Positions 64-56,368 of a DNA stretch of 64,000 nt are shown here, piece after piece; within the stretch, counting starts at the first letter, position 1; every line of letters begins with the position of its first letter. The stretch lies in contig CAZMWM010000001.1 of NCBI GenBank assembly GCA_964570105.1, forward strand, positions 7,803 through 71,802, given 5' to 3'. Both the position numbers and the translations under genes were made by a program. The notes below the pieces were generated by a model. It was not told where the DNA came from, made no database searches, and was given only the letters and a program-made list of their open reading frames with translations. The stretch comes from an uncultured Lachnospiraceae bacterium (GTDB lineage: Bacteria > Bacillota > Clostridia > Oscillospirales > CAG-272).

Positions 64-819
64 ATGAAGATACTCGTGCTTAACGGAAGCCCCCGAGGAA
101 ACAGGAGTGCTTCTCTCAAGGTCGCTCGCGCTTTCCTTTCCGGCTACGGAGAGGTGATACCATCGGAGATCGAGACCGTCGAGCTTGGAAAGCTCCGCAT
201 TTCCGATTGCCGTGGCTGTCTGTGCTGTTGGAAAAAGGAGAGCGGCAGGTGTGTGATATCGGACGATATGCAGTCTCTTCTCGAAAAAGTCCTCGCATCC
301 GACATAATAGTTGAGGTATTCCCTCTCTATTTTTTCACGATCCCGTCGCGTCTCAAGGCGTTTACGGACAGATGCATCGCGCTGACATCGGCATATCGCG
401 GCTCGCACGGAGACGGTGTGAACGAGCATTTCATACATTCAATGCGTTACCCGGAGCTTTATGAAAAAAAGCTCATACTCGTCTCGACCTGCGGATATGA
501 ATTTACCGACGATAATTACAACGCCGTAACGGACCAGTACGACCGCATATGCGGTAAAGGCAATTACCTGTCCCTTTTCTGCCCTCAAGGCGGTGTCCTG
601 TCCGAGCAGACGCTTCGAACACAGGTCGACAGATACCTTTTAAAATTCGCCTCGGCAGGCAAGGAGTACGCCGAAAACGGCTCTCTCTCAGCCGAAACGC
701 TCGAGCTTTTAAAAAAGCCCCTTCTCCGTCATCACGCATTTGAAGCGGCACTTAACCGTACGTGGGATACGGACGCGGGACCGTACGGAAACAGCTCGGA
801 CACGGAGGCAAGATCTTGA
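64..819 (+). CDS. Flavodoxin-fold NAD(P)H-dependent FMN reductase / iron-sulfur flavoprotein (Isf-like)
   Basis: The N-terminus MKILVLNGSPRG is typical of the NADPH-dependent FMN reductase / flavodoxin-like fold. The compact Cys cluster CRGCLCCW...GRC resembles the Isf 4Fe-4S motif. The ORF track starts at GTG 49; ATG 64 gives the conserved N-terminus. The stop TGA 817-819 overlaps the TTG start of the next gene. Confidence 0.65.
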   Translation: MKILVLNGSPRGNRSASLKVARAFLSGYGEVIPSEIETVELGKLRISDCRGCLCCWKKESGRCVISDDMQSLLEKVLASDIIVEVFPLYFFTIPSRLKAFTDRCIALTSAYRGSHGDGVNEHFIHSMRYPELYEKKLILVSTCGYEFTDDNYNAVTDQYDRICGKGNYLSLFCPQGGVLSEQTLRTQVDRYLLKFASAGKEYAENGSLSAETLELLKKPLLRHHAFEAALNRTWDTDAGPYGNSSDTEARS

Positions 820-1523
820 AAAAGCTTTTAAGTTCTCTTAAACGCAAGCTGATACGCGGTATCTTCTTCTGCTTGTATCCCATCCTCGCGCTCATTTACA
901 GACCTCGCGTCATATATACCTCACAGCAAGCGCGTGATGCGTTACGCTCACCCTGTATAATAGTTTGCAATCACACGAGCCACAAGGACGGTCTGCTCAT
1001 TTCAAGACTGCTTTTGAAGTACGGAGCTTTCACCTTCGTGGCAAAGGATTGGTACGAAAGACCTAAGCTGAGACCGCTGTTTTCATCACTTGATTTTCTG
1101 CCCATAGACCGTAACTCCATGGATACCGAGTGGTTGGATATGGGACTTGAAAAGCTCAGAGCCGGCTCTCCGATACTCATATTTCCGGAAGGCAGGACGA
1201 GCAAAACGGGCGTTATGAATGAATTTCATCCCGGATTTCTGTACATAGCCAAACGAGCCGAGGTACCTGTGATCCCCACCTGTCTCGTGTGTGATTATAA
1301 GCCATTCCATCGCCAAAAGCTCGTGATCGGCGCTCCGTATCAGCCCGATCTTACCGTAAAAGGTCGCCCGTCGGTGATCCTCTCCGGATATGCGGCTGAA
1401 TGCAGGCGGATAATAGAGGAGCTTGTGATCGCCAACGGCGGTCCGATAGTGCTCGAAGCCCCCGTCTCAGCGGATACGGCTACCAAAGCCGAAGAGGAAG
1501 CGCGTGATACCGAGAAGGTCTGA
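816..1523 (+). CDS. PlsC-family (lysophospholipid/1-acylglycerol-3-phosphate) acyltransferase
   Basis: Carries the HX4D catalytic motif (NHTSHKDG) and the FPEGRTS block of the PlsC/LPLAT family. I prefer the TTG start at 816, which has GGAGG at 804-808 and a TTGA start/stop overlap with the upstream gene. The track's ATG 762 start would overlap the upstream CDS by 58 nt. Confidence 0.75.
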   Translation: MKKLLSSLKRKLIRGIFFCLYPILALIYRPRVIYTSQQARDALRSPCIIVCNHTSHKDGLLISRLLLKYGAFTFVAKDWYERPKLRPLFSSLDFLPIDRNSMDTEWLDMGLEKLRAGSPILIFPEGRTSKTGVMNEFHPGFLYIAKRAEVPVIPTCLVCDYKPFHRQKLVIGAPYQPDLTVKGRPSVILSGYAAECRRIIEELVIANGGPIVLEAPVSADTATKAEEEARDTEKV

Positions 1524-1594: not shown

Positions 1595-1843
1595 ATGGAC
1601 GAGAAAGAACTCAGCATTGCCGCAAAGATCAAGGAGATGCTCTCCGAAAACCTCGGAATACCGGAGGACCAGCTTGATTACGATGTTCCGCTCTTCGCGG
1701 ACGGTATAGGACTTGACTCCATCGACTCTCTTGAGATCATCGCATGCATCGACGGTGAATACGGAGTTTCGATGACCGGTGTCGCAAAGGAAAACTTCTA
1801 TAACATCACCAGCCTCACCAAGTACGTCGTCGAGAATATGTAA
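1595..1843 (+). CDS. Acyl carrier protein
   Basis: An 82-aa acidic protein with the phosphopantetheine attachment motif GLDSIDSLEI (DSL serine). Confidence 0.85.
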   Translation: MDEKELSIAAKIKEMLSENLGIPEDQLDYDVPLFADGIGLDSIDSLEIIACIDGEYGVSMTGVAKENFYNITSLTKYVVENM

Positions 1844-1970: not shown

Positions 1971-4370
1971 ATGAATAATACTACCAAGCGTTGCGTCGTT
2001 ACCGGACTCGGACTTATAACAGCCATCGGAAACGATGTCACCGAATGCTGGAGAAACGCTCTTGACGGCAAGAGCGGAATAGATAAAGTCAAAAGCGTTG
2101 ACAGCACAGACTGCTATGCAGATCTCGGAGCCGAGCTTGAATGCGACGAGCTTGACCGCTCAAAATATTCTTCGGATATGGACAGAGTGTCCAAGCTCTG
2201 CGTGAAGGCGGCAGGCGAAGCCGTAGCGGACGCAGGACTTAAGATCGGCGAGAACGCAGAGTCGGAAAGAGTCGGCGTTATCATGGGAAGCTGCGTCGGC
2301 GGTGTCGTCAGCATCGAAAATTACGTCAAGAACGGACAGTCGCCCGAGGATATAACCAAATTCACCATTTCCGCCATAGCAAATCACGTGGCGGCGGAAT
2401 TCGGAGCCGAGGGAATAGTTACAAACGTCGCGAATGCCTGTGCCGCGGGCACCATAAGCATCGCATACGCTTGCGAGCTGATACGCGCAGGAGTAGCCGA
2501 TGCCTTCATCGTCGGAGGTGCAGACGCTTTCGCCGCAGTTCCCTACAGCGGATTTATCGCTCTCCACGCGCTCGATCCTTCTCCCTGCTCTCCCTTCAAT
2601 CACAGCCACGGCATCACGCTCGGCGAAGGCTCGGGTGCACTGATAGTCGAATCGTACGAGCACGCAAAAAAGCGCGGCGCTCACGTTTACTGCGATGTTC
2701 TCGGCGCCGGTATCAGCAGTGACGCACACCACATAACCGCTCCCCGTCCGGACGGAGAAGGTCAGATGACCGCTATCCGTACGGCGCTCAAAAATTCCGG
2801 TCTCACCCCTGCCGATATCTCGTACATAAACGCACACGGCACCGGAACGCCCAAAAACGACGAAGCAGAATTCCTTTCGCTCCACACCATATTCGACGAT
2901 CAGAACGACGATCTCAGCGTAAGCTCGACCAAGGCGATGGTTGGTCACTGTCTCGGAGCCGCCGGAGCGATAGAAGCGGTATTCAGCGTAAAGGCACTTT
3001 CGGAAGGTCGCATTCCTCCCACGGTAGGTTATTCCGAAGAGGATATAGCGGCTCTTGCGGAAAAAGCCGGAAACATAGATTTTCGCCCGAACGTTATGAG
3101 AAAGAAGGACGGAATGCGCTCGGTGATGTCCAATTCCTTTGCCTTCGGCGGAAATAACGCAAGTATAATATTCAGCCTTGACGGCGATAAGGCAAAGTGC
3201 GAGACCTCCTCCGAAAAGGTATATATAACCGGACTTGGCGCGGTAACGCCCTTAGGAAACGGCGTTGAGACATATACCTCGGCACTCAAGAGCGCACCGT
3301 GTGCCGAAGGCTCGCTCTGCTCCTCCGTCGGCAGTGAGGATTACGCCGCGCACGGTCTTGCACTCTCCTTCTACCGCAAGCTCGACCGCTTCAGCCAGCT
3401 TCAGGCAGTCTCGGGGATGGAAGCCATAGAGGACGCAAATATCACCGTAAGCGCCGAAAACGACAACGACATCGGTATGATAATCGGCACTGCCAACGGA
3501 CCGATCTCGACCGTTTACAATTTCGAATGCGATATAGCCGAAAAAGGCAACCACGCCGGAAGCGCCTTCAAGTTTCCGAACACCGTGTACAACGCCGCGG
3601 GCGGATATCTTTCCATCTGCTCAAAAATAAAGGGCTATAACGTCACTCTTACCAACGGAGCGCAGTCGGGACTTGCAAGTCTCTGCTATGCCTACAACGT
3701 CATCCGTCAAGGCGCAGAAAAAATAATGCTCGCCACCGGAACAGACGAAAACAACGAGACCATATCCGCTCTGTACGGAAAGCTCGGTTGTACCGTCGAC
3801 ACCCCCACATCTCCCTATTCCGGCTCGCACGGCTTCGTCCTCGGAGACGGAAGCGTCACCGCAGTTCTCGAAACGGAAAGCTCCGCAGACGCCCGTAACG
3901 CCAAGGTGTACGCGGAATTTGCAGGATACGGAATGGCGCACTCATCCGTGCGTTTCGGTCACATCACAGGCTCGGATAAGGCTCTCTCGAGCGCTATCGA
4001 GCTTGCGCTTGCCGATGCCGCGATCGATGCAAACAGTATAGACTGCGTGGTCGGATTCGGAAACGGCATGGACGCATTCGACGCCATCGAGCGTAATGTT
4101 TATTCGGATATATTCGGAGAGTCCAAGATCCCCGTTCTTTCCGTGAAGGAAAAATGCGGAGAGGGACGGGCGGCGTCAGCGGCGTTGGGAGCGGCACACG
4201 CTTCACTCATACTGAGCGGCGATATAACGGGCACGCAAAAGTGCTATCTCCTTTCGAGAAGTACCGCACGAGCCTCGACCGTCGACGTGACCTCGTTTAA
4301 AAACATTCTCATCACTGCTTGCGCCACCGGCGGCTCGTATTGCGCCGTCGTACTGCGTAAGACAAACTAA
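1971..4370 (+). CDS. Fused beta-ketoacyl synthase (KS, FabF-like) plus chain-length-factor-like (KS-beta, Cys->Gln) didomain protein
   Basis: The N-terminal half (aa 1-405) has the full KS triad context: ANACAAG (Cys157, TGT 2439-2441), NAHGTGT and GHCLGAAG. The C-terminal half (aa ~415-799) aligns to the same fold, but the triad positions read TNGAQSG (Gln565, CAG 3663-3665), VGFGNGM and GEGRAASA. There is no stop codon between the two halves. Confidence 0.85.
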   Translation: MNNTTKRCVVTGLGLITAIGNDVTECWRNALDGKSGIDKVKSVDSTDCYADLGAELECDELDRSKYSSDMDRVSKLCVKAAGEAVADAGLKIGENAESERVGVIMGSCVGGVVSIENYVKNGQSPEDITKFTISAIANHVAAEFGAEGIVTNVANACAAGTISIAYACELIRAGVADAFIVGGADAFAAVPYSGFIALHALDPSPCSPFNHSHGITLGEGSGALIVESYEHAKKRGAHVYCDVLGAGISSDAHHITAPRPDGEGQMTAIRTALKNSGLTPADISYINAHGTGTPKNDEAEFLSLHTIFDDQNDDLSVSSTKAMVGHCLGAAGAIEAVFSVKALSEGRIPPTVGYSEEDIAALAEKAGNIDFRPNVMRKKDGMRSVMSNSFAFGGNNASIIFSLDGDKAKCETSSEKVYITGLGAVTPLGNGVETYTSALKSAPCAEGSLCSSVGSEDYAAHGLALSFYRKLDRFSQLQAVSGMEAIEDANITVSAENDNDIGMIIGTANGPISTVYNFECDIAEKGNHAGSAFKFPNTVYNAAGGYLSICSKIKGYNVTLTNGAQSGLASLCYAYNVIRQGAEKIMLATGTDENNETISALYGKLGCTVDTPTSPYSGSHGFVLGDGSVTAVLETESSADARNAKVYAEFAGYGMAHSSVRFGHITGSDKALSSAIELALADAAIDANSIDCVVGFGNGMDAFDAIERNVYSDIFGESKIPVLSVKEKCGEGRAASAALGAAHASLILSGDITGTQKCYLLSRSTARASTVDVTSFKNILITACATGGSYCAVVLRKTN

Positions 4371-4412: not shown

Positions 4413-5147
4413 ATGGATAAGGTCGCGATAGTTACCGGCGCATCCAGAGGAATAGGCAAAGCTTGCGCACTTCGCTTAGGCAGAGCCGGTATGAACGTAG
4501 CAGTCAATTATAATTCCTCCGAGGCAGAGGCGAACGAGGTCGTACGCGATATCATAGCCGCAGGCGGTGACGCGATAGCACTCAAGGCAGACGTGTCCGA
4601 CATAACACAGGTAAAGGCGATGGTACGTGACGTTTTCAAAAAATGGGGACAAATAGATATCCTCGTGAACAACGCCGGAATAGTCAAGGACGAATACCTC
4701 CTTATGATGACTCCCGAGAACATAGACAGATGCTTGGGACTTAACGTACGCGGATATATGTTCGCCGCACAGCAAGCCGCGCTCAAAATGTTCCGCCGGA
4801 AGAGCGGACGGATAATAAACATCTCTTCGGTCTCGTCGATAGTTGCGATACCCGGACAGACCGTTTACAGCGCGACCAAGGGCGCTGTAAACTCGATGAC
4901 GGCGACCATGGCAAAGGAGCTTGCTCCTTACGGAATAACAGTAAACGCCGTAGCCCCCGGATTTATCGCCACCGATATGGTAGATAGCATACCGCAGGAA
5001 AAACGTGATGAATACGACGCACTCATCCCCTTAAAGCGCATGGGAAGATCCGAGGAGGTCGCCGAAATGGTTTACGCGATGACAGGAGACGCTTTTTCCT
5101 ACGTTACGGGACAGGTGATCGTTCTTGACGGAGGACTTTCATTATGA
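4413..5147 (+). CDS. fabG: 3-oxoacyl-ACP reductase (SDR)
   Basis: Has the TGASRGIG cofactor motif, NNAG and the YSATKGAV catalytic block. At 244 aa it has typical FabG length. Confidence 0.9.
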   Translation: MDKVAIVTGASRGIGKACALRLGRAGMNVAVNYNSSEAEANEVVRDIIAAGGDAIALKADVSDITQVKAMVRDVFKKWGQIDILVNNAGIVKDEYLLMMTPENIDRCLGLNVRGYMFAAQQAALKMFRRKSGRIINISSVSSIVAIPGQTVYSATKGAVNSMTATMAKELAPYGITVNAVAPGFIATDMVDSIPQEKRDEYDALIPLKRMGRSEEVAEMVYAMTGDAFSYVTGQVIVLDGGLSL

Positions 5148-5584
5148 TGAATATTATGGACGTGAGCGCCCATCTCAAGCAGAGACCGCCGTTTCAGATG
5201 ATAGAAAAGGTGACGGAGCTTGAGCCGGGAGCAAGAGCTGTCGGAATTAAGAACGTTTGCATAAACGAGCCTTATTTTGCGGGACATTTTCCCGGCTCTC
5301 CCATAATGCCGGGCGTACTTCAGATAGAGAGCGCCGCTCAGCTGTGCTCTCTTACACTGGACGCCGAGCCTGACGATGAATACGTATACGTTATCCTAAA
5401 GATAAACGATTTCAAGTTTTTGCGTCCGGTGCTTCCCGGAGATACGCTCACCGTGAGCGTAACGAAGGATTCGGATGCCGGCGGACTTTATAAGTTCTCC
5501 GTATCTCTTACCGTAGACGGTCAGCTCCGCTCCAAGGGCGCGTTGACCTTTGCAAGGATGCGCAGAGCCGACATCTATTCCTGA
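5144..5584 (+). CDS. fabZ: 3-hydroxyacyl-ACP dehydratase
   Basis: Carries the hot-dog fold signature EPYFAGHFPGSPIMPGVLQIESAAQ. An ATGA overlap links it to the fabG stop. Confidence 0.85.
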   Translation: MMNIMDVSAHLKQRPPFQMIEKVTELEPGARAVGIKNVCINEPYFAGHFPGSPIMPGVLQIESAAQLCSLTLDAEPDDEYVYVILKINDFKFLRPVLPGDTLTVSVTKDSDAGGLYKFSVSLTVDGQLRSKGALTFARMRRADIYS

Positions 5585-5608: not shown

Positions 5609-6544
5609 ATGAAGATTGCTTTTCTGTTCGCCGGACAAGGCGCACAATACGTCGGAATGGGCAAGGAGCTTTACGAAAGCTCCGAAATCTGCAAAAAAAT
5701 ATTTGATATGGGAGAGGATATCCGTCCCGGCACGCTCACGACCTGCTTTTGCGGTCCCGCCGAGGAGCTTACCCGTACCGTAAACACTCAGCCTTGCTTG
5801 TTTCTTTGTGACCTCGCATGCGCCGAAGCGCTCCGCTCAAACGGAATATCTCCGGATGTATGCGCAGGCTTTTCGCTCGGGGAGCTTCCGGCGCTTGCAT
5901 TTTGCGGTATCCTCTCAGCGTCGGACGCCTTCAGGACGGTGGTTTTGAGAGGCGAGACTATGGACAGATGCGCAAGCGAGCATCCGGGTGGGATGGCGGC
6001 GGCTCTCAAGTTGCCCTTTGAAACAGTTGAAGAGATATGCTCACACTACGCAAATATCTATCCCGTGAATTATAACTGCCCCGGTCAGCTCTCCTGCGCC
6101 GGAGCACCGGAAGAGATGGATGCCTTTTGCAACGAGATAAAGAGCGCCGGAGGAAGAGCGGTAAAGCTCGCCGTCAGCGGAGCGTTCCACACGCCATATA
6201 TGAAAGCGGCGACCGAGGCACTTTCCGAGCTTTTGAAAACGCTTGAGGTCTCATCTCCGAGCATACCGCTCTACTCCGATATCGATGCCACGCTGTATTC
6301 GGGATCCGCGGACACTATAAGAGATACCGTGGCTCGGCAAGCGAGCAGGAGCGTAAGATGGGTGGATATACTCAAGGATATGCGTAAGGGTGGCGTGGAT
6401 ACGTTCATCGAGGTCGGCGCCGGAAAAACACTTTCGGGATTTGTCAACCGAACGTTTTCGGACGATATCGCGTCCGGTAACGTGCGCGTGTTCAACGTGA
6501 GCGACGCGGATACCCTGAACGCAACGTTGCAAGCCCTCAAATGA
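5609..6544 (+). CDS. fabD: Malonyl-CoA:ACP transacylase
   Basis: Has the FLFAGQGAQYVGMG N-terminus, the active-site GFSLGE and the later SGAFHT block. Confidence 0.9.
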   Translation: MKIAFLFAGQGAQYVGMGKELYESSEICKKIFDMGEDIRPGTLTTCFCGPAEELTRTVNTQPCLFLCDLACAEALRSNGISPDVCAGFSLGELPALAFCGILSASDAFRTVVLRGETMDRCASEHPGGMAAALKLPFETVEEICSHYANIYPVNYNCPGQLSCAGAPEEMDAFCNEIKSAGGRAVKLAVSGAFHTPYMKAATEALSELLKTLEVSSPSIPLYSDIDATLYSGSADTIRDTVARQASRSVRWVDILKDMRKGGVDTFIEVGAGKTLSGFVNRTFSDDIASGNVRVFNVSDADTLNATLQALK

Positions 6545-6592: not shown

Positions 6593-7450
6593 ATGTCAGT
6601 CTTTCGTAAAAAGAAATACAATTACAAGGCTCCGGAGATAACAAAGACCGCTCCGCAGTTAAGTATAGGCTCCGATGTGCTCGTTACCTGCTCCGCTTGC
6701 AAGCAGAACGTTTCGCTTGCGGATATGCTGAAAAACCATTATTTCTGCCCGAAATGCAACGCCTGCAACCGAGTTCCGGCAAGAACGAGGATACTTATGC
6801 TCTGTGATAAGGACACCTTCATAGAGCACGACGCGAGCCGAGTATCGCAGGATCCGCTATCCTTCCCCGATTACGAAAAAAAGCTTGAGGATGCGCGAAG
6901 CAAGACGGGAGAAAAGGAAGCCGTGATATGCGGCGAAGCAAAGCTCGGCGGCTACGACTGCTGTATATTTGCTATGGACTCAAGATTTATGATGGCTTCC
7001 ATGGGAAGCGCGGTCGGAGACAAGATAACTTCGCTGTTTGAATACGCCACGGAGAAAAAGCTCCCTGTGATAGGATTTGCGGCGTCAGGCGGCGCCAGAA
7101 TGCAAGAGGGGATGGTCTCCCTTATGCAGATGGCAAAGACTTCGGGAGCGATAAAATTGCACAGTGACGCAGGTCAATTCTTCTGCTCGGTGCTCACAGA
7201 TCCCACCACGGGAGGCGTCACGGCAAGCTTTGCTATGCTCGGAGATATCATCATAGCCGAGCCAAAGGCTTTGATAGGCTTTGCGGGACGTCGCGTCATC
7301 ACTCAGACGACCGGTGAGGAGCTGCCGGAAAACTTCCAGAGCGCGGAATTTCAGCTTGAGAACGGTTTCGTCGACGCTATCGTTGAGCGTTCGGCTTTGC
7401 GCGGCTACCTCGCTTCCCTCCTCGCCCTGCACGTCGACGCGTGCAGATAA
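6593..7450 (+). CDS. accD: Acetyl-CoA carboxylase carboxyltransferase beta subunit
   Basis: Has an N-terminal Zn ribbon (CSAC...x15...CPKC) and a carboxyltransferase core (GGARMQEG, MGDIIIAEP). Confidence 0.9.
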   Translation: MSVFRKKKYNYKAPEITKTAPQLSIGSDVLVTCSACKQNVSLADMLKNHYFCPKCNACNRVPARTRILMLCDKDTFIEHDASRVSQDPLSFPDYEKKLEDARSKTGEKEAVICGEAKLGGYDCCIFAMDSRFMMASMGSAVGDKITSLFEYATEKKLPVIGFAASGGARMQEGMVSLMQMAKTSGAIKLHSDAGQFFCSVLTDPTTGGVTASFAMLGDIIIAEPKALIGFAGRRVITQTTGEELPENFQSAEFQLENGFVDAIVERSALRGYLASLLALHVDACR

Positions 7451-7511
7451 GCCACCGTAATTACGCAAAGAAAGGAAGCTTTCGCATACACGAAAGTCAA
7501 AATCACGAATT

Positions 7512-8303
7512 ATGAACGCATACGAAAAGGTGCGCTGTACCAGAACAGCCGCCAGACCTATGGCAAGTGATTTCATCGGCAAGGTCTTTGAGGACTTTAC
7601 GGAGCTTCACGGAGACAGAAGATTTCACGATGACGGCGCGGTCATTGCAGGCATCGCGCGTCTCGACGGCAGACCGGTCACCGTTATCGGAATAGAAAAG
7701 GGACGCACGCTTGAAGAAAGGATGGCGCATAATTTCGGCTGTGCGCATCCCGAGGGATACCGAAAGGCTCTGCGCCTTATGAAGCAAGCAGAAAAGTTTC
7801 ACCGCCCCGTGATCTGCTTCGTTGATACCTCCGGCGCGTATTGCGGTGTCGGAGCCGAACAGCGCGGTCAGGGACTTGCCATCGCTGAAAATCTTTTTGA
7901 GCTTATGACGCTGAAAACGCCGGTCATATCCGTCGTCATAGGAGAGGGCGGAAGCGGCGGCGCACTCGCACTTGCAGTTGCAGATAACGTTTGGATGCTC
8001 GAAAACGCCTATTATTCGGTCATATCCCCCGAGGGTTGCGCAAGCATAATATATAAGGACGCCGCCAAAGCTCCCGAGGTCGCGGACGCGCTCGGGCTTA
8101 CGGCGCAGTCACTCTTGAAGCTCGGCATCATCGAAAGGATAATAGACGAGCCGACGAGCTTCGACGACGCAAAAGCCGCCGATGGCTTTTACGCATCCTT
8201 CAAAAAGGAGCTGTCCTCCGCGGTAAGCAGAGCCGCTTCAAAGCCGATGGACGCGTTGCTCGCCGCAAGATACGAAAAATACCGTAAGATAGGCAGAGAA
8301 TAA
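7512..8303 (+). CDS. accA: Acetyl-CoA carboxylase carboxyltransferase alpha subunit
   Basis: Carries typical AccA blocks: FTELHGDR, FVDTSGAY and VIGEGGSGGALA. Confidence 0.9.
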   Translation: MNAYEKVRCTRTAARPMASDFIGKVFEDFTELHGDRRFHDDGAVIAGIARLDGRPVTVIGIEKGRTLEERMAHNFGCAHPEGYRKALRLMKQAEKFHRPVICFVDTSGAYCGVGAEQRGQGLAIAENLFELMTLKTPVISVVIGEGGSGGALALAVADNVWMLENAYYSVISPEGCASIIYKDAAKAPEVADALGLTAQSLLKLGIIERIIDEPTSFDDAKAADGFYASFKKELSSAVSRAASKPMDALLAARYEKYRKIGRE

Positions 8304-25893: not shown

Positions 25894-27220
25894 TAACGGA
25901 CGCAACGTAATGGTGATAGGCGCCGGGCTTGCCGGATGTGAGGCGGCTTATCAGATCGCCAAGCGCGGAGTTGAGGTCACCCTTTACGAGATGAAGCCGT
26001 CGCGCAAAACTCCGGCACACCGCTCCGAGGGGTTTGCAGAGCTTGTATGCTCAAATTCCCTTCGCTCGTCACAGCTCACGAATGCCGCAGGACTGCTTAA
26101 AGAAGAGCTTCGCCGCTGTGACTCCTTGATAATGAGAGCCGCAGATGCTTGCTCCGTCCCGGCAGGTGCGGCGTTAGCGGTAGACCGTGACCTGTTTTCC
26201 GAATTTATCACCAAGGAAATAAAAAGCTCCCCTCTCATAACCGTTGTGGAACGCGAGGTCACCGCATTGCCCACCGAGGGCGTAAGGGTGGTGGCAAGCG
26301 GTCCACTCACCTCCGACGCTCTTGCAAAAAGCATATCGGAATATTTCGGTGATAACGGTCTGAGCTTTTTCGATGCGGCGGCGCCTATAGTCGACGCACA
26401 GAGCATCGATCTTTCGATAGCGTTTGCTCAGTCAAGATACGGCAAGGGCGACGCGGATTACCTCAACTGCCCAATGGATAAGGAGCAGTACCTCGCTTTT
26501 TACGATGCACTCCTTCACGCGGAAGTAGCCAAGCTTCACGATTTTGACACTGAGGCTCAACGCGAGTTTACGGTTTTCGAGGGATGTATGCCGGTCGAGG
26601 TGATGGCGTCAAGAGGTGTGGACACCCTGCGCTTCGGACCGATGAAGCCCGTCGGTCTTACCGATCCGCGTACCGGAAAAGAGCCGTACGCCTGCGTTCA
26701 GCTTCGCGCGGAAAATAAGGAAAAGACTATGTTCAATCTGGTCGGATTTCAAACGCATCTCACCGTAAGCGAGCAGAAACGCGTTTTCCGTATGATCCCG
26801 GGACTTGAAAACGCCGAGATATTGCGTTACGGCGTGATGCACAGAAACACCTACCTTAATTCTCCGGAGCTTCTAAGCGAAACGTATTCCGCCCGAAGGG
26901 ATCCCACGCTCTTCTTCGCCGGTCAGATGACCGGAGTGGAAGGATATATCGAGTCGGCAGGCTCCGGTCTCGTTGCCGGTATAAATGCGGCGCTCACCGT
27001 CTCAGGGGGGCGCGAAGCGGTCTTTCCGGACACCACGGAGCTGGGCGCAATGGCAAAGTATATATCGAGCGGCAACGGCGGAAAATTCCAGCCGATGAAC
27101 GCAAATTTCGGCATAATACGTCCGCTGGAAAAGAAGGTCAAGGGTGGAAAGAGCGCACGAAATCAGGCACTTTCCGAACGCGCACTCGCATCTCTCGAGG
27201 AATTTTGGGGGACGCTCTGA
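25877..27220 (+). CDS. trmFO: Methylenetetrahydrofolate-tRNA-(uracil54-C5)-methyltransferase
   Basis: Has the [17 protein letters not shown] motif and the [10 protein letters not shown] and [18 protein letters not shown] blocks. The start is ambiguous (25877, 25886 or 25910). Confidence 0.9.
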
Positions 27221-27275
27221 CGGACGCGCGGATATACAGTCACGCACGAAAAGAAAGGATGCTTTTGAAAGTAAA

Positions 27276-28274
27276 ATGAAGATCATTGTCGACGTAATGA
27301 GCGGAGATAACGCCCCACACGAAACGGTAAGAGGCGCCCTGCTTGCGGCTCAGCGATTGGAGCACGAGCTGATCCTCGTCGGAAATGAGGATATAATACG
27401 TCTGATAGCGGACGAAAACGAGCTTCCGCTCACGCCAAACGTTGAAACGGTCAACACGAGCGAGATCATAACCATGGAGGATAACCCCATGTGTGTCCGC
27501 TCAAAAAAGGATTCATCGCTCGTAAAGGCGCTCTCTTTGCTCGCCGACGGAACAGGCGACGCTATGGTCAGCGCCGGAAACACAGGCGCTCTCTACACGG
27601 GCGCTTCGCTACTCGTCTCGAGGATACGGGGATTCAGAAAAGCGGCTATCGCCACGGTGCTTCCCTTGCAAACTCCGCTACTGCTTCTCGATGCAGGTGC
27701 GAACATAGTCGTCACAGACGAAAATCTTGAGCAGTTTGCGCTTATGGGATCTGCGTACAGCGAGCACGTGATGGGGGTACGTTCTCCGCGAGTCGGTCTT
27801 TTGAACAACGGTACGGAAAGAACGAAAGGCTCCCCATTGCTTCAGGATACCTATTGCCGTCTTGAAGAAAACGAAAATCTGAATTTCGTCGGAAATATCG
27901 AGGCAAAGACCTTGCCGTTCGGCGTTTGTGACGTGCTCGTGACGGACGGATTTTCCGGAAATATGATCCTGAAATACACCGAAGGGCTGGGTAGCTTCTT
28001 TATGAAGAAGCTCAAAGCAACGTACAGAAAGAATCTCTTCACCAAGGCGTCCGGCATTATGATCAAAAACGAATTTCATCATCTGATGAGAGAATTTGAT
28101 GCTTCGGAATACGGCGGTGCTCCGCTTCTCGGAATATCGAGACCGGTGATAAAAGCTCATGGAAACTCCGATGCCCGCGCGATAACGAACGCCATACACC
28201 AAGCCTGCGTATACGCGGAAAGCGGAATGATAGAACATCTTTCCGCGCTCGGAGAGGTTTCGGAAAAGACCTGA
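27276..28274 (+). CDS. plsX: Phosphate acyltransferase PlsX
   Basis: Sequence MKIIVDVMSGDNAP..., with SAGNTGA and VKAHG. The track's upstream extension from 27144 overlaps trmFO and is not PlsX-like. Confidence 0.9.
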   Translation: MKIIVDVMSGDNAPHETVRGALLAAQRLEHELILVGNEDIIRLIADENELPLTPNVETVNTSEIITMEDNPMCVRSKKDSSLVKALSLLADGTGDAMVSAGNTGALYTGASLLVSRIRGFRKAAIATVLPLQTPLLLLDAGANIVVTDENLEQFALMGSAYSEHVMGVRSPRVGLLNNGTERTKGSPLLQDTYCRLEENENLNFVGNIEAKTLPFGVCDVLVTDGFSGNMILKYTEGLGSFFMKKLKATYRKNLFTKASGIMIKNEFHHLMREFDASEYGGAPLLGISRPVIKAHGNSDARAITNAIHQACVYAESGMIEHLSALGEVSEKT

Positions 28275-28335
28275 ATACAGCAAAAAACGTCCGCTACTTA
28301 TCCTATAAAAACAACGAAAGGTACATTCTTGCTTA

Positions 28336-29772
28336 ATGTCAGATAATTTTCACATAAATTCCATACAAAACAGGATAGGCTACGATTTTAAAGACACCGA
28401 GCTGTTGAGGCTCGCCCTTACCCACGTCTCTTCGGCAAACGACGCCGAAAATTCCAATCAGGGACTCAGCTTTCTCGGAAGAGCGGTACTTGAGCTTTTG
28501 GTGCGCGATCATCTGTATTCAAATTACAGCTATGCGTCCATAGAAACGCTCGAGAACACGGGCACGGAGGAGACCGCCGCTTTTTCCCTCGCCTGCAAAT
28601 GCGGCGAACAGCTCCGTTTGAGTGAGTTTGTTATCATCTCGAACGCGGCAACGGCGATCAAAAACAGTCCCGCGGTCGAAAAGGAGCTGTTCCTTGCGCT
28701 GTCGGCGGCTATATACAAGGACGGCGGAATGCCTGCTATACGCGCATTCATCATCCCGAAGCTCCGAGCTGTGATATCATCGGAAGCTCCGCATCTCGCA
28801 CACCGCGCTGTCCGCAGAGCTTCACCGAGCGCAAGCTCGGATGCCTCGCAAGACAAGCGCGACGCGTCCGCGAGCGTCTCGGCTTCGCGTACCGCCGCAA
28901 AAGCAACGGACGCCATCAAGAGCCTTATAACATCAAAGCTCCGCCGTCCGTGGCAGACCTCGGACGCAACAGATACCGCAAATGCTAAGCCAACTGACAA
29001 AAAAGCTTCAACGGCGGCGCGCAAGGACGCATCAAAAACGTCAACCGCCGAAACATCGCCCCGTAAGCGCACAGGCGCAAGGACTTCCGAAAAGGACACG
29101 TCCTCCGCTTTCGAGACGCCCTTCATCCGTGACGCACTGACACCTGTCAAGCTGAGTGAAAAACAGCAGAACGAGCTTGTTAAGAAAACCAAAAAAAGCA
29201 AACCGGAAGTAAAGACGGTAAACGCGTCGGCGCAGACCGAGACGGACGATGCCGCAAATTACAAATCGGCGCTTCAAGAATACGTACAGAAAAACGTACA
29301 TTCATCGACCGTGATGCTTGAATACAGGACAGAAAAAGCGGAAGGCGGCGCTGTATCCGTTGAGGTATACCTGTTTGACAGAAAGCTCTCAAGTGAGACA
29401 GGCGCATCCAAAAAGGATGCGTCACGCTTTGCCGCACGGTCTGCGTACCGCGCACTCACCGATGAAAAAAGCAAGGAAGCCGCGTGGTTTCGCGGTATAT
29501 GCTCGGATCCCACCCATCTGCCGCTACCACAAGGCTCGGAGCAGAACGATCACGTCTCACAGTTAAATCAGACCTTCCAGAAGCTCGGACACACCTCCAA
29601 CGCCCAACTGCTCTACGAACGCATCCCGGCATCAAACAAAAAGCTTTTCGCGGTCACTGTGAACGCCAACGGCAAGGAACTCGGCAGAGGCGAAGGAAAA
29701 ACGGTAAAAGAAGCGCGTCAAAACGCCGCAAAAGCAGCACTCGCTTCCCTTCCTAAGCTCACTTTAGTTTAA
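28336..29772 (+). CDS. RNase III-like pseudoenzyme with disordered linker and two dsRNA-binding domains
   Basis: Aa 8-145 align to the RNase III domain of the adjacent rnc, but the signature NERLEFLGD reads NQGLSFLGR and E..FEAL reads KELFLAL. Aa ~150-300 are a low-complexity S/A/T/K-rich stretch. Two dsRBM-like units span aa ~307-374 (YKSALQEY...GASKKDASRFAARSAYRAL) and aa ~404-472 (...GEGKTVKEARQNAAKAALASL). Confidence 0.8.
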   Translation: MSDNFHINSIQNRIGYDFKDTELLRLALTHVSSANDAENSNQGLSFLGRAVLELLVRDHLYSNYSYASIETLENTGTEETAAFSLACKCGEQLRLSEFVIISNAATAIKNSPAVEKELFLALSAAIYKDGGMPAIRAFIIPKLRAVISSEAPHLAHRAVRRASPSASSDASQDKRDASASVSASRTAAKATDAIKSLITSKLRRPWQTSDATDTANAKPTDKKASTAARKDASKTSTAETSPRKRTGARTSEKDTSSAFETPFIRDALTPVKLSEKQQNELVKKTKKSKPEVKTVNASAQTETDDAANYKSALQEYVQKNVHSSTVMLEYRTEKAEGGAVSVEVYLFDRKLSSETGASKKDASRFAARSAYRALTDEKSKEAAWFRGICSDPTHLPLPQGSEQNDHVSQLNQTFQKLGHTSNAQLLYERIPASNKKLFAVTVNANGKELGRGEGKTVKEARQNAAKAALASLPKLTLV

Positions 29773-29797
29773 ACATCAAGAAAGTCACGGTCACAAA

Positions 29798-30505
29798 ATG
29801 AACAATAACAATATAAAGGCACTTGAGGACGCCATCGGATACCGCTTCAAAGACCGTTCGGTATTAAGCCTTGCTCTCACCCATTCGTCGTACGCATACG
29901 AGCTTCGGCAAAAAAAGCTCCACTGCGACTCAAATGAACGGCTCGAATTTTTGGGCGACAGTGTCGTATCCATAATCTCCACAACTTATCTCTATACCGC
30001 CTTCCCCGAGCACACCGAGGGCGAGCTTTCAAGGCTCCGCGCCGGAGCTATCTGCACCGCTTCCCTATCCGCTTTTGCCAGACGCATATCGCTCGGTGAC
30101 TATCTGATGCTCGGATGCGGCGAGGATAAGGGCGGAGGACGGGAAAACCCCACCATCCTCGAAAACGCCTTCGAAGCCCTCGTCGGAGCTATATATATCG
30201 ACAGCGGTCGCGACATTGCCACAGCACAGCGGTTTCTTCTTCCGTTCATAAAGAGCGAGGTCGCCCTTGCGATCGAGAACGGAGCGACCGAGGATCACAA
30301 ATCACAGCTACAGCAGATAGTACAGCAGATGCCGGATCAAAAGCTTGAATATGTACTGACCTCAAAGAGCGGTCCGGATAACGCTCCGACATTCACGGTC
30401 GAGGCGAGACTAAACAGCAACGTTATAGGAAAAGGCTCGGGTACGTCCAAAAAACGCGCGGAGCAGGCAGCCGCTTGTGAAGCGTTGCGTTTTTTCGGCA
30501 AATGA
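29798..30505 (+). CDS. rnc: Ribonuclease III
   Basis: Has an intact NERLEFLGDS signature, ENAFEALVGAIY and a C-terminal dsRBD (GSGTSKKRAEQAAACEAL). Confidence 0.95.
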   Translation: MNNNNIKALEDAIGYRFKDRSVLSLALTHSSYAYELRQKKLHCDSNERLEFLGDSVVSIISTTYLYTAFPEHTEGELSRLRAGAICTASLSAFARRISLGDYLMLGCGEDKGGGRENPTILENAFEALVGAIYIDSGRDIATAQRFLLPFIKSEVALAIENGATEDHKSQLQQIVQQMPDQKLEYVLTSKSGPDNAPTFTVEARLNSNVIGKGSGTSKKRAEQAAACEALRFFGK

Positions 30506-42370: not shown

Positions 42371-43555
42371 TTAAAACTTTCTCCAGACCATCTTATTGAC
42401 CACGCCGGTATAGGACTGTATTATCTTAACTACCTTCGAAGAAACGTTCACATCCGTATAATCCGGGACAGGGATACCGTGATCTCCGTTTTCATTCATC
42501 GCCACAGCGGTATCTACCGCTTGAAGCAGAGACGTACCGTCGATACCGGCAAGCACGAAGCACGCCTTATCAAGAGCCTCCGGACGCTCCGTCGAGGTAC
42601 GGATGCAGACAGCCGGAAAAGGTCTGCCGATGGACGTAAAGAAGCTGCTCTCTTCCGGCAGAGTACCGGAGTCCGACACCACGGCAAAAGCATTCATCTG
42701 AAGGCAGTTGTAGTCGTGAAATCCGAGCGGCTCGTGGCGTATGACGCGTCGGTCAAGCTCAAATCCGCTTGCTTCAAGTCTCTTTCTGCTTCTCGGATGG
42801 CAGGAATACAGTATCGGCATATCGTATTTTTCAGCCATGGCATTTATAGCGCCGAAAAGCGAAAGAAAATTCTTTTCGGTATCGATATTCTCTTCCCTGT
42901 GGGCAGAAAGAAGTATATATCCGCCCTTTTTGAGACCGAGCCTTGAATGTATGTCGCTCTTTTCTATCTCGGGGAGATTTTCGCTGAGCACCTCCGCCAT
43001 AGGCGAGCCGGTGACGTAGGTACGCTCCTTCGGCAGACCGCACTCGTGCAGATAGCGTCTCGCATGCTCGGAATAAGCAAGATTTACATCGGATATTATG
43101 TCCACTATGCGCCTGTTCGTCTCTTCGGGCAGACATTCGTCCTTACATCTGTTTCCGGCTTCCATATGGAATATCGGTATATGCAGACGCTTGGCTGAGA
43201 TAGCCGAAAGACAGCTGTTGGTATCTCCGAGTATGAGCAGAGCATCCGGGCGGAGCTGAGCCATCAGCTTATAGGAGCAATTTATTATGTTTCCTACAGT
43301 CGCGCCGAGATCGTCGCCGACTGCGTTCATATAGACCTCAGGATCGGCAAGCTTCAGGTCCTTGAAGAAAACTCCGTTCAGATTGTAATCGTAATTCTGT
43401 CCCGTATGCGCCAGCACGCAGTCAAAATACCTGCGACACTTATTTATGACCGCCGCGAGACGTATTATCTCAGGTCTGGTGCCGACGATTATCAGTAATT
43501 TCAAGCGACCGTCGCCCTTAAATGCGACGTCGGAATAATCGAGTTTGATATCCAT
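42371..43555 (-). CDS. fnlC: UDP-N-acetylglucosamine 2-epimerase, non-hydrolysing (FnlC/Cap5G type)
   Basis: Has the IVGTRPEIIRLA N-terminal motif, GDTNS and HREEN blocks. It is contiguous with FnlA-like and FnlB-like genes. Confidence 0.8.
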   Translation of the reverse strand: MDIKLDYSDVAFKGDGRLKLLIIVGTRPEIIRLAAVINKCRRYFDCVLAHTGQNYDYNLNGVFFKDLKLADPEVYMNAVGDDLGATVGNIINCSYKLMAQLRPDALLILGDTNSCLSAISAKRLHIPIFHMEAGNRCKDECLPEETNRRIVDIISDVNLAYSEHARRYLHECGLPKERTYVTGSPMAEVLSENLPEIEKSDIHSRLGLKKGGYILLSAHREENIDTEKNFLSLFGAINAMAEKYDMPILYSCHPRSRKRLEASGFELDRRVIRHEPLGFHDYNCLQMNAFAVVSDSGTLPEESSFFTSIGRPFPAVCIRTSTERPEALDKACFVLAGIDGTSLLQAVDTAVAMNENGDHGIPVPDYTDVNVSSKVVKIIQSYTGVVNKMVWRKF

Positions 43556-43605
43556 ATCATTTCCGTCCTTGTTTATCAGCTTAAAATATGCACAGCCCGA
43601 CGTGC

Positions 43606-44802
43606 TTATACAGGCTCGCCGAACGTATCGGGCTTTGAACTGTCAAAGCATTCGTTCGCCCACATAAAGGTGATCATATCGTCGGTATCCGAAAGATTGA
43701 TGATGTCGTGCGTATATCCGGGAAGCATATGTATCGCCTCGAGCTTTTCGCCCGACACCTCAAACTCAAGCACCTCGTCCGATCCTATCCTGCGTTCTCT
43801 GATCAACCCGTGACCGGATACCACTATGAAAAATTCCCATTTGGTATTGTGCCAATGCTGTCCTTTGGTAATTCCCGGTCTTGAGATGTTCACCGAGAAC
43901 TGACCGCATTTTTCGGTGCGCAAAAGCTCGGTAAACGAGCCTCTTGCGTCCACGTTCATTTTTAGCGGAAAAGCCACCTTTTCCTTCGGAAGATACGAAA
44001 GATAAGTGCTGTACAGCTTTTTTGCAAAGCCGCCACTACAAAGCTCGGGCATCACGAGCGTTAGGGGCTGAGCGCTGAAGCTCTCCAAAAGCTCCACTAT
44101 CTCCCCCAGCGTCACCCTGTGAGTTATCGGAGCCATACAATAGCGTCCGTTCTCATCCGGAACAGCGTCCACGCCTTCAAAGTGACACCTATGCTCTTTT
44201 CCCTCAAGCGCAAGCAACATCTCGTCAACAAGATCGTCGATATAGAGCAGCTCGAGCTGTGCCGCGGAATCGTTTACCGTGATGGGAAGCCCCCGTGCGA
44301 TATTGTTGCAGAAGGTCGCGATCACGCTGTTATAATTCGGGCGGCACCATTTTCCGAACAGATTGGGAAAACGGTACACGAGCACTCGCGCTCCGGTCTC
44401 CTCCGCGTACGAGAAGAAAAGCTCCTCGCCGGCTTTTTTGCTCCTGCCGTAATCTCCATCGTACCGCCCGATAAGCGTAGCCTGTATGGACGAGGCAAGC
44501 ATAACGGGGCAACGGTTATCATACCTTTTCAGCGTATCGAGCAGGTCGGAGGCAAATCCGTAATTGCCCTTCATAAATTCATCCGTGCTTTGCGGACGGT
44601 TGACGCCTGCAAGATTGAACACGATATCCGCGTTATTACATCCTTCCTCAAGCACGTCTCGCGGCGTATCCACATCATACAGATACAACTCCCCGAGCTT
44701 AAGAGACGGATGCGTACGGTCCTTGCCGTCCCTGATATTTTTTAAAGCCTCAGAGAGATTTTTCCCAACGAAGCCGTACGCTCCGGTGATCAGTACGTTC
44801 AT
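43606..44802 (-). CDS. fnlB: SDR reductase with C-terminal cupin (FnlB/Cap5F type)
   Basis: Has an MNVLITGAYGFVGKNL Rossmann N-terminus and a C-terminal cupin region (GQHWHNTKWEFFIVVSG). An RBS (aaagaaagg) precedes ATG 44802; the track's longer start at 44859 is unlikely. Confidence 0.8.
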   Translation of the reverse strand: MNVLITGAYGFVGKNLSEALKNIRDGKDRTHPSLKLGELYLYDVDTPRDVLEEGCNNADIVFNLAGVNRPQSTDEFMKGNYGFASDLLDTLKRYDNRCPVMLASSIQATLIGRYDGDYGRSKKAGEELFFSYAEETGARVLVYRFPNLFGKWCRPNYNSVIATFCNNIARGLPITVNDSAAQLELLYIDDLVDEMLLALEGKEHRCHFEGVDAVPDENGRYCMAPITHRVTLGEIVELLESFSAQPLTLVMPELCSGGFAKKLYSTYLSYLPKEKVAFPLKMNVDARGSFTELLRTEKCGQFSVNISRPGITKGQHWHNTKWEFFIVVSGHGLIRERRIGSDEVLEFEVSGEKLEAIHMLPGYTHDIINLSDTDDMITFMWANECFDSSKPDTFGEPV

Positions 44803-44862
44803 AAATGCGACCTTTCTTTCCGCACAGATGCCGCCGACCTTTCCGCCGACGGTGTGCAAGGA

Positions 44863-45903: not shown

Positions 45904-45972
45904 TTTAATTCATCCCTTCCGGTCGATACAGACCGTTTTATTTTATTTTAGCCCGTTCATTCGCACGGGACG

Positions 45973-50677: not shown

Positions 50678-50702
50678 CCGAGATCATCGGAAGCGTTGAG
50701 GT

Positions 50703-51596: not shown

Positions 51597-51758
51597 CATA
51601 CGCTCTCCATTCCGCCGTCTGTGCGGCTGTAGTACGGGGTAAACGAATATGCGGAGCAAGTCCGCCATCTGCCACCGGAGCTTCTTCGCTGCTCCTTACG
51701 CGCTCTTTCGCATTCGATGCCAACGGCAAATGCCGAAGCATATGCCGGCGCGGCGGCG

Positions 51759-52820: not shown

Positions 52821-52908
52821 ATAAGCTCTCCATTCTGCCGCGTGACGTATGAACGGTCACATTTTCGTACCCGTATCGACACCGCTTTACGCACAGGTGC
52901 GTCGGCAG

Positions 52909-54000: not shown

Positions 54001-54072
54001 TTTATTTTCGTGGACACTGCCTCCGCCTCATACGAAAGCATTCCTTTCTGAAATTTCTGCTCCGTCAAGCTC

Positions 54073-56176: not shown

Positions 56177-56339
56177 TTTTTATCAGTTTCCTTCCAGAAA
56201 TGGGGCTTGTACGGCATAATGATTACGGCACAGTAACATTGAACACCCGCGTATGATCGCGTATGATCTTGACAAATACCGAAAAACGATATCCTCACAG
56301 CGCGGCAGTCTCAAGCATCGTATACAGTAATTTATAATA

Positions 56340-56368
56340 AGTATAGCATATAAGCAGTAAAATGTCAA
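56340..56368 (-). promoter_or_regulatory. Sigma70 promoter of the minus-strand polysaccharide operon
   Basis: The minus strand reads TTGACA, a 17-nt spacer, then TGcTATACT. This leaves a ~155-nt 5' UTR. Confidence 0.5.

Follow-up and report, generated by a model that had tools for sequence, protein, structure and literature searches.

Gene structure of the fused ketosynthase

KS-alpha and KS-beta are usually the products of separate, translationally coupled genes. In the window analysed here, a stretch of 64,000 nucleotides from an uncultured Lachnospiraceae bacterium, an active ketosynthase (KS) and a chain-length factor (CLF)-like partner are encoded as one chain. The questions raised by this locus are whether the fusion (KS-CLF) is genuine and, if so, which pathway it serves.

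The gene is an uninterrupted ORF of 799 codons and its product contains two KS folds, with Pfam domains PF00109 and PF02801 each matching two stretches. The N-terminal half has a complete Cys-His-His site, while the C-terminal half is a KS fold without any of the three catalytic residues. In the HMMER alignment with E. coli FabF, the sequence 'TNGAQSG' lies on 'ATACTSG', placing Gln565 over Cys163 exactly as in the engineered C163Q mutant (2GFV); 'VGFGNGM' lies on 'NAHGTST', replacing His303 by Phe696; and 'GEGRAASA' lies on 'GHLLGAAG', replacing His340 by Glu731. The Phe of 'GFGG' is likewise gone from this half. The codons TGT for Cys157 and CAG for Gln565 are those given in the original prediction, which had proposed a single KS-CLF chain with these three replacements; His289 and His326 are encoded by CAC, Phe696 by TTC and Glu731 by GAG. 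It had also named loss of the KS fold or a shifted Cys in the second half as grounds for rejecting that proposal; the C-terminal half by itself matched TIGR03150 (fabF) at 1e-41, and its Gln lies on Cys163 of FabF. The linker was correctly described as free of stop codons, but at 13-16 residues it is slightly shorter than the ~20 residues proposed. The N-terminal half alone scored 374 bits against TIGR03150, below the curated cut-off of 493.75 for housekeeping FabF, and the full protein passes this cut-off only because the scores of its two domains add.

Table 1. Positions of KS-CLF, its domains and the neighbouring genes in the window
Feature	Position (nt)	Strand	Remarks
FLAV, flavodoxin-like FMN reductase	64..819	+	PF02525, PF03358; 75/87 loci
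PlsC-family (LPLAT) acyltransferase	813..1523	+	PF01553, 1.8e-22; 55/87 loci, many loci incomplete
Dedicated ACP, 82 aa, GLDSIDS motif	1595..1843	+	PF00550; 82/87 loci
KS-CLF fusion gene	1971..4370	+	799 aa, two KS folds, uninterrupted ORF
Active KS domain, aa 1-402	1971..3176	+	Cys157 2439-2441, His289 2835-2837, His326 2946-2948
Inter-domain linker, aa 403-416	3177..3218	+	Sequence variable, length kept at 13-16 aa
CLF-like domain, aa 417-799	3219..4367	+	Gln565 3663-3665, Phe696 4056-4058, Glu731 4161-4163, Arg733 4167-4169
CLF helix-loop-helix motif, aa 526-549, ...GSAFKFPNTVYNAAGGYLSI	3546..3617	+	18/52 invariant CLF-half residues
FabG-like ketoreductase (KR)	4413..5147	+	adh_short_C2, 5e-65; 83/87 loci
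FabZ-like dehydratase (DH)	5144..5584	+	81/87 loci
FabD-like malonyl-CoA:ACP transacylase	5609..6544	+	60/87 loci
AccD (6593-7450) and AccA (7512-8303), carboxyltransferase subunits	6593..8303	+	PF01039, PF03255; 55-56/87 loci

Conservation of the fusion

Adjacent ordinary KS and CLF genes could have been merged in this window by an assembly or frameshift error, a reading for which no support was found and to which we assign a negligible probability. The best 120 homologues listed (781-831 aa, 58-99% identity) are all fused, giving 121/121 fused sequences in the alignment, which includes the query, as are 86/86 KS-CLF ORFs in related loci; the fusion is therefore not an assembly artefact. The same arrangement with a linker of 13-16 residues (14 residues in 71 of the 86 ORFs) recurs in independent assemblies from NCBI, ENA, JGI and Logan, and in the isolates Eubacterium sp. 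MSJ-21, Eubacterium sp. AF22-9, Lachnospiraceae bacterium G41 and Clostridium fungisolvens. The search for orthologous fusions across Clostridia, which had been suggested as a check, thus bears the prediction out.

The family is present in at least 553 species genomes, mainly of Lachnospiraceae, and hundreds of Clostridia share both the fusion and its operon. Some of its sequence clusters have hundreds to more than 1,000 metagenome copies. Cys157, His289 and His326 of the KS half, and Gln565 of the CLF half, are invariant among the 121 aligned sequences and the 86 ORFs of the loci; in the alignment Arg733 is also invariant and Glu731 is retained in 118/121. Among the best 150 representatives of clusters at 50% identity, at least 57 are two-KS proteins (730-861 aa), whose amino-acid compositions extend from low-GC-like to high-GC-like. 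Cys occurs at the nucleophile position of the CLF half in 0/59 fused representatives, and in related fused proteins Glu, Ala, Ser or His takes the place of Gln. At 44-50% identity, the fused relatives have Glu, Ala or Ser at this position; the Glu variant P0203 lies in a FabD/ACC-type operon, the sole such case among the Glu, Ala and Ser variants looked up, and the Ser and Ala variants P0206 and P0209 are sited in RiPP-like clusters.

Two possible origins of the gene were considered and rejected. Recent internal duplication does not fit the two halves, which share only 26% identity (71 bits, less than the C-terminal half shares with E. coli FabF). A stand-alone KS with 52% identity to the N-terminal half (P0240) was examined as a split ancestor with a separate CLF gene following it; the next ORF downstream of it is unrelated.

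Predicted structure and covalent precedents

The AF2 model of KS-CLF had a pLDDT of 89.3 and a pTM of 0.93, with a pLDDT of about 79-89 in the linker. In the model the two halves associate in the manner of a KS dimer, that is, as the intramolecular KS/CLF pseudo-dimer for which a structure prediction had been proposed as a check, and both domains superimpose on 6RIW. This entry was the top structural match and the only two-domain match in the PDB (TMq 0.81, E 4e-53, 17% identity). It is the KS-CLF didomain of PfaC, from the PUFA synthase of Moritella marina, and covalent KS-CLF fusions are therefore already known. Full-text searches found no paper on this family in Firmicutes or Lachnospiraceae, nor on a fused type II KS-CLF. 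The earlier remark that no covalent KS-CLF has been characterised in Firmicutes thus agrees with the literature found, whereas such fusions have been solved elsewhere.

The domain order of PfaC is identical to that of KS-CLF. However, PfaC runs on into C-terminal FabA-like DH domains and has the multidomain partners PfaA, PfaB and PfaD, whereas KS-CLF ends after the CLF domain and its neighbours are discrete type II genes for ACP, KR, DH and FabD. A further difference from PfaC is that both halves of KS-CLF resemble FabF more than they do a KS of the PKS type.

Relationship to the anammox KS/CLF pair

Based upon our own match of residue numbers, PDB entries 9S5H and 9S5I appear to represent amxFabFhet, the amxFabF2/amxFabFmut heterodimer of anammox bacteria: with an offset of 5, the numbering of 9S5H_B fits Cys165, His298 and Ser296 of Brocadia amxFabF2. 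The best PDB match of the N-terminal half was 9S5H_B (1.8e-86, 294 bits), followed by B. subtilis FabF (2.7e-83). A family profile of the CLF half placed 9S5H_C first (220 bits, 3.2e-64), ahead of every FabF, with 9S5H_B at 189 bits; as a single sequence the same half scored 114 bits with E. coli FabF, 109 with 9S5H_C and 61 with the actinorhodin CLF (1TQY_B). The anammox pair amxFabF2/amxFabFmut is thus the nearest sequence match of both halves. The helix-loop-helix of the CLF half, its best conserved part, aligns with 'FPNTVLNA' of amxFabFmut.

The anammox proteins are a FabF-derived KS/CLF pair of the ladderane 'Cluster I', described in a May 2026 preprint as the first chain-length factor in a fatty-acid pathway (bioRxiv 10.64898/2026.05.19.726425). 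The heterodimer makes acetyl-ACP and acetoacetyl-ACP out of malonyl-ACP; since it decarboxylates malonyl-ACP, synthesis starts without FabH (bioRxiv 10.64898/2026.05.19.726425). Its CLF has Val or Thr at the Cys position and a tunnel judged non-catalytic, the heterodimer still decarboxylating, and Phe135 and Val139 of the amxFabFmut helix-loop-helix line the KS tunnel (bioRxiv 10.64898/2026.05.19.726425).

Both systems combine an active FabF-derived KS with a partner lacking the triad, share the FPNTV.NA motif and the replacement of the second His by Glu, and belong to lipid-type clusters with their own ACP and FabZ. They differ in that the anammox pair is encoded by two genes and KS-CLF by one, in the residue at the Cys position (Gln in KS-CLF), and in phylum (Planctomycetota versus Clostridia). 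The anammox cluster contains radical SAM enzymes and makes ladderanes, whereas the KS-CLF operon encodes FabD, AccDA, a PlsC-like acyltransferase and the flavodoxin-like reductase. KS-CLF is a covalently fused and, with at least 553 species genomes, much more widespread relative of the anammox pair.

Comparison with other two-ketosynthase systems

The KS pairs of type II PKSs (actinorhodin 1TQY, Iga11/Iga12 6KXD, ApeO/ApeC 6QSP) also combine an active KS with a partner that lacks the Cys and determines chain length, and in aromatic KS-beta the Cys position is likewise occupied by Gln. These systems have a dedicated ACP, and the reducing ones KR and DH as well. Their two subunits are separate genes, unlike the single chain found here, and none of the 87 loci contains a cyclase, an aromatase or a KS-alpha gene of its own. 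The Gln had been regarded as a hallmark of type II PKS KS-beta and of KSQ loading domains; the C-terminal half nevertheless lies outside the aromatic KS-beta clade and, as the bit scores above indicate, is closer to FabF.

RedX/PigJ of the prodigiosin MBC pathway likewise has two KS folds in one polypeptide, of which one is inactive. There the inactive domain comes first, so that the order is reversed, and the pathway is another one. Of the PigJ model, the N-terminal half of KS-CLF matched no more than the C-terminal third, and the score of 82-85 bits is below the cut-off of 900. Neighbours of the cyl type, as in the GBS granadaene operon, were found in none of the loci. For GBS CylH and CylI, papers write 'CylH/I' and do not state how the two are arranged.

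Operon content

The conserved operon consists of genes for a PlsC-like acyltransferase, ACP, KS-CLF, KR, DH and the flavodoxin-like reductase, and ACP, KS-CLF, KR and DH are syntenic in 81-86 of the 87 loci. In this window the acyltransferase ORF opens at position 762; the start at 813 was inferred from a 236-aa homologue in locus L005. FabD, ACC subunits, a thioesterase and PlsX or AcpS are frequent additions: AccB and AccC are present in six loci, PlsX comes after the cluster in 13 species, and AcpS before it in two relatives. Six reduced-genome species have a single tight operon with the order ACP-KSCLF-KR-DH-FLAV-ACP2-AccBCDA-FabD-biotin ligase-thioesterase. The version found in Oscillospiraceae keeps the PlsC-like acyltransferase, lacks FabD and ACC and has its own Sfp-like PPTase. 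Relatives at 31-46% identity lie within RiPP-like secondary-metabolite clusters.

BLAST with approximate query sequences revealed no homologue of FabH, FabK or FabI in any locus, including about 10 kb of flanks, and FabI, FabK, FabL and FabV were found in none of the loci. The flavodoxin-like protein has a conserved four-Cys motif and a predicted AzoR-like fold; it also matched the flavone reductase 7D38. Against the housekeeping models, ACP scored only 33 bits (TIGR00517, cut-off 70), KR 256 bits (TIGR01830, cut-off 297.75) and the FabD-like protein 239 bits (TIGR00128, cut-off 260.9), while DH, at 122.5 bits, exceeded the cut-off of 113 for FabZ (NF000582).

Proposed function

On balance we favour, with some confidence, the interpretation that KS-CLF is a hard-wired KS/CLF heterodimer which primes itself and carries out all condensations in a FAS-like type II lipid pathway that has no FabH. 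By homology to amxFabFhet, the KS half would prime synthesis by decarboxylating malonyl-ACP to acetyl-ACP, would then form acetoacetyl-ACP, and would also carry out elongation. The CLF half would not condense; its invariant FPNTVYNA helix-loop-helix would cap and shape the acyl tunnel of the KS and would therefore set chain length. On the same homology, covalent fusion would enforce 1:1 pairing and block the formation of homodimers. Each round would be processed by KR and DH, with FLAV as the only candidate for enoyl reduction; since the cluster has no recognised enoyl reductase, the product could be unsaturated. The adjacent PlsC-like acyltransferase would probably take over the acyl-ACP product for lipid synthesis, a part that PlsX or a thioesterase would play in other species. 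The priming and tunnel-shaping roles are carried over by analogy from amxFabFhet, whose halves are only distantly related. A purely passive CLF leaves the near-invariance of Gln565, Glu731 and Arg733 unexplained, and two further observations count against a FAS reading: ACP and the majority of the enzymes fall short of the cut-offs of the housekeeping equivalogs, and relatives at 31-46% identity lie in RiPP-like clusters.

A different product would be made if the operon were a highly reducing type II PKS of the ishigamide or aryl-polyene kind, in which KS-CLF, KR and DH, without enoyl reduction, would build a conjugated polyenoyl chain to be attached to a lipid anchor by the PlsC-like acyltransferase. 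Aryl-polyene clusters typically carry LPLAT acyltransferases, which was counted in favour of this reading. The lack of FabI, K, L or V, the PKS-like ACP with its low score against AcpP, and the matches of DH to ApeI-like proteins and of KR to flexirubin FlxB (230 bits) also fit it, as do the relatives in RiPP-like clusters that have ACP, KR and DH only. The ishigamide KS, moreover, is the nearest structure reported for amxFabF2 (bioRxiv 10.64898/2026.05.19.726425). Against this stands the flavoprotein reductase, which occurs in 75/87 loci, lies directly 3' of DH in the tightest operons and resembles an ene-reductase of gut Clostridia. Depending on the species, the cluster is also accompanied by PlsX, AcpS, a FatA-type thioesterase, a full ACC or a biotin ligase, and DH passes the FabZ cut-off. 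A polyene pathway is considered rather unlikely.

The decarboxylating step, as the original prediction had implied, might instead reside in the CLF half, acting as a Gln-dependent malonyl-ACP decarboxylase like KSQ or KS-beta and handing an acetyl primer to the KS half for extension. The C163Q mutation turns FabF into a decarboxylase. Gln565 occupies exactly that position and is invariant in the close homologues and loci, the operon has no FabH, and the invariant Arg733 together with Lys/Arg726 could bind a carboxylate. The decarboxylation chemistry of KSQ and C163Q, however, depends on both His; KSQ loading domains and FabF C163Q share the Cys-to-Gln change and keep both, whereas the CLF half combines Gln with Phe696 and Glu731 and has lost the Phe of 'GFGG'. 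As both His are lost and Gln gives way to Glu, Ala or Ser in fused relatives at 44-50% identity, this reading is weak and we regard it as improbable. Furthermore, amxFabFhet decarboxylates with Val or Thr in its CLF (bioRxiv 10.64898/2026.05.19.726425).

A bolder extension of the self-priming lipid pathway is that the operon is the main or only FAS of a large block of Clostridia from gut and rumen, and of Bacilli relatives with reduced genomes. It would be a type II FAS of unconventional design, with KS-CLF replacing FabH and FabF, and with FLAV (flavodoxin fold, possibly Fe-S) as a new class of enoyl-ACP reductase. This is put forward tentatively and is, in our estimate, unlikely. The Oscillospiraceae version, without FabD and ACC and with its own PPTase, points to an auxiliary role and not to the main FAS. 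If the operon does supply acyl chains for membranes, a large number of abundant gut commensals would both begin and finish fatty-acid synthesis without FabH or a known enoyl reductase, which would bear on the annotation of gut genomes and on whether narrow-spectrum inhibitors of FabH, FabI or FabK spare or hit the microbiota. As a natural single-chain protein, KS-CLF offers a handy scaffold of fixed stoichiometry in which chain-length control may be studied or engineered.

The fused KS-CLF gene and its catalytic positions

The KS-CLF open reading frame runs without interruption for 799 residues. Pfam identified the KS N- and C-terminal domains twice each, and the fabF model matched the C-terminal half alone (1e-41). 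Based on HMMER alignment, Gln565 falls on Cys163 of E. coli FabF (the Gln site of the engineered C163Q mutant), Phe696 on His303 and Glu731 on His340; Cys157, His289 and His326 are retained in the N-terminal half. The codons named in the original prediction read as claimed, and its single uninterrupted chain of a ketosynthase and a triad-less KS-fold partner is borne out by the reading frame, the Pfam domains, the fabF score and the FabF alignment. Since the halves are only 26% identical, the pair is old and its origin by recent tandem duplication was excluded.

The best 120 homologues listed were of 781-831 aa, with 58-99% identity. In an alignment of 121 sequences, the query among them, the KS triad, Gln565 and Arg733 were invariant, with Glu731 present in 118 and Phe696 in 111. 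A scan of species-representative genomes revealed at least 553 loci with KS-CLF, predominantly in Lachnospiraceae MAGs from gut and rumen; isolates included Eubacterium sp. MSJ-21, Eubacterium sp. AF22-9 and Lachnospiraceae bacterium G41. All 86 KS-CLF reading frames in the fetched loci were fused, through a linker of 13-16 residues. An assembly artefact is ruled out by the fused homologues, the loci from isolates and the fetched reading frames.

The AlphaFold2 model (77 sequences), a check that the original prediction had proposed, gave a pLDDT of 89.3 and a pTM of 0.93, indicating confident relative placement of the two halves. The sole PDB chain matching both domains by Foldseek was the PfaC KS-CLF didomain 6RIW (TMq 0.81, 17% identity); the remaining PDB matches were single FabFs, each spanning half of the model. 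Covalent KS-CLF is therefore an architecture already known from PfaC of a PUFA synthase; the present protein arrives at it from a FabF-like background. The stand-alone, FabF-derived, single-chain form is new, and the family, widespread in gut Clostridia and generically annotated, is apparently uncharacterised as far as could be found.

Relationship to the anammox KS/CLF pair

The top solved homologue of the N-terminal half was 9S5H chain B (1.8e-86), marginally ahead of B. subtilis FabF. A profile built from the CLF halves gave its best score to 9S5H chain C (3.2e-64, 220 bits); no FabF exceeded 198 bits, and chain B reached 189 bits. The CLF-specific motif FPNTVYNA aligns to FPNTVLNA of chain C, and Glu at the second His position is common to both (GEG vs GEC). 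With an offset of 5, chain B numbering fits Cys165, His298, Ser296 and Ala297 given for Brocadia fulgida amxFabF2 (bioRxiv 10.64898/2026.05.19.726425). On this match we infer that 9S5H is the amxFabF2/amxFabFmut pair of that preprint, whose main text prints no PDB code.

Neither amxFabF2 nor the triad-less amxFabFmut is active by itself; paired in a KS/CLF-like heterodimer, they convert malonyl-ACP to acetyl- and acetoacetyl-ACP, with Phe135 and Val139 of a CLF helix-loop-helix lining the KS tunnel. The preprint describes this as the first chain-length factor in a fatty-acid pathway (bioRxiv 10.64898/2026.05.19.726425). The equivalent 24-residue motif of the present family (aa 526-549) holds 18 of the 52 invariant CLF residues.

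Operon context and the flavodoxin-like protein

Features of the window and of loci fetched from related genomes (L handles, own coordinates), with occurrence in 87 loci, many ending at contig ends
Feature	Window position	Strand	Fetched loci	Occurrence
KS-CLF	1971-4370	+		86/87
KR				83/87
ACP				82/87
DH				81/87
FLAV (flavodoxin-like FMN protein)	49/64-819	+	L027:13581-14309; L086:13596-14336; L095:10001-10717	75/87
FabD				60/87
AccD/AccA				55-56/87
PlsC-family acyltransferase				55/87
Hairpin	1849-1900	+
Compact 13-gene operon			L086:9648-20490
Two TldD/PmbA-family genes			L001:15428-18114; L002:9641-12327
plsX-rnc-smc-ftsY block	27-36 kb
478-aa protein	within 27144-30505	+
Polysaccharide-synthesis region	42371-61432	mostly -

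The genes counted across the 87 loci form a syntenic core. A TetR-family regulator is often upstream of the cluster, and an acyl-ACP thioesterase or PlsX lies downstream in particular lineages. PlsX follows in 13 species (TIGR00182, 254 bits, over cut-off), the genes beyond it varying, and AcpS precedes ACP in two relatives (47-50% identity), one with Glu replacing Gln. Six reduced-genome species (L027, L032, L051, L055, L060 and L086) carry one tight operon, ACP-KSCLF-KR-DH-FLAV-ACP2-AccB-AccC-AccD-AccA-FabD-biotin ligase-thioesterase, with two different ACPs, an acyl-ACP thioesterase and neither FabH nor a known enoyl reductase. The Oscillospiraceae version is limited to a PlsC-like gene, ACP, KS-CLF, KR, DH, an Sfp-like PPTase and FLAV. 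No FabH, FabK or FabI homologues were found in any of the 87 loci using approximate query sequences. The TldD/PmbA-family genes are inserted into the operon between FabD and AccD in an abundant gut lineage, whose cluster has 982 member sequences. In the gap from ACP to KS-CLF, a GC-rich hairpin with an A-tract and a U-tract on its flanks (RNA MFE -26.5 kcal/mol, z = -2.1) could be a partial terminator raising the ACP transcript relative to downstream genes.

FLAV accompanies KS-CLF, KR and DH across Lachnospiraceae, Oscillospiraceae and reduced-genome Bacilli-like MAGs. Its confident model has an AzoR-type flavoprotein fold, also matching the flavone ene-reductase 7D38, and an invariant four-Cys motif (C-x2-C-x2-C-x7-C) is possibly an Fe-S site. 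With FabI, K, L and V lacking, FLAV is the operon's only candidate for enoyl reduction; no flavodoxin-fold enzyme is among the enoyl-ACP reductases in a 2022 review.

The wider two-KS family

A full HMMER scan covering 1.84 billion cluster representatives had at least 57 two-KS proteins (730-861 aa, 31-52% identity) among its best 150 matches, their amino-acid compositions spanning low-GC-like to high-GC-like; P0006 and P0037, cluster representatives, were two more (63-67%). Domain 1 keeps Cys-His-His in all these representatives, and none of them has Cys at the equivalent position of domain 2. Gln at that position is limited to clades closer to the query, others having Glu, Ala, Ser, His, Val and more.

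Fused relatives (31-46% identity) in L087 (Clostridium fungisolvens), L088 (Paenibacillus piscarius), L089, L090 and L092 are embedded in RiPP-like clusters that encode radical SAM enzymes and small peptides. The Cys position of these relatives is taken by Ala, Ser, Ile, Leu or Gln. Their clusters include ACP, ABC transporters, usually KR and DH, a BtrH_N-like or M50-like protein and 2-4 ORFs of 47-63 aa, and look like acylated-peptide (lipopeptide) clusters. Both named species presumably own an ordinary FAS besides.

Mechanism and product

Architecture, conservation and context are shown directly; the mechanistic steps are drawn from the anammox homologue. The fused protein is best read as a hard-wired KS/CLF heterodimer, the only condensing enzyme in a FAS-like pathway that lacks FabH. 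By analogy with the anammox pair, the KS half would prime by decarboxylating malonyl-ACP and then elongate, and the CLF half would shape the KS tunnel. The original prediction, sound in its observation and partly supported in its interpretation, had also linked Gln565 to decarboxylation by the CLF half. This reading is weaker: the His pair required for Gln-type decarboxylation is gone, Gln is substituted by other residues in related operons, and the anammox CLF is non-catalytic and has Val or Thr at this position (bioRxiv 10.64898/2026.05.19.726425). A passive CLF role, however, does not account for invariant Gln565 and Arg733 and near-invariant Glu731.

The product of the heterodimer's operon may be a fatty acid or membrane lipid, as suggested by linkage to PlsX, AcpS, thioesterase, full ACC and biotin ligase, by a DH over the FabZ cut-off and by the reductase immediately following DH. 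A polyene-type product may also be considered, to which the absence of a known enoyl reductase, the PKS-like ACP (33 bits vs AcpP) and the relatives in RiPP-like clusters point. The finding would gain in interest were the operon the main FAS of these organisms, with a new reductase class.

Other features of the window

The plsX-rnc-smc-ftsY block is canonical, and acpP is absent from it. A second, atypical RNase III paralogue of 478 aa is encoded between plsX and rnc; it combines an RNase III-like domain and dsRNA-binding motifs with a long linker rich in Ser, Ala, Thr and Lys. The large polysaccharide-synthesis region, unrelated to KS-CLF, encodes glycosyltransferases, a Wzy-like polymerase, LicD, UDP-GlcNAc 2-epimerase and sugar-nucleotide dehydratases and dehydrogenases.
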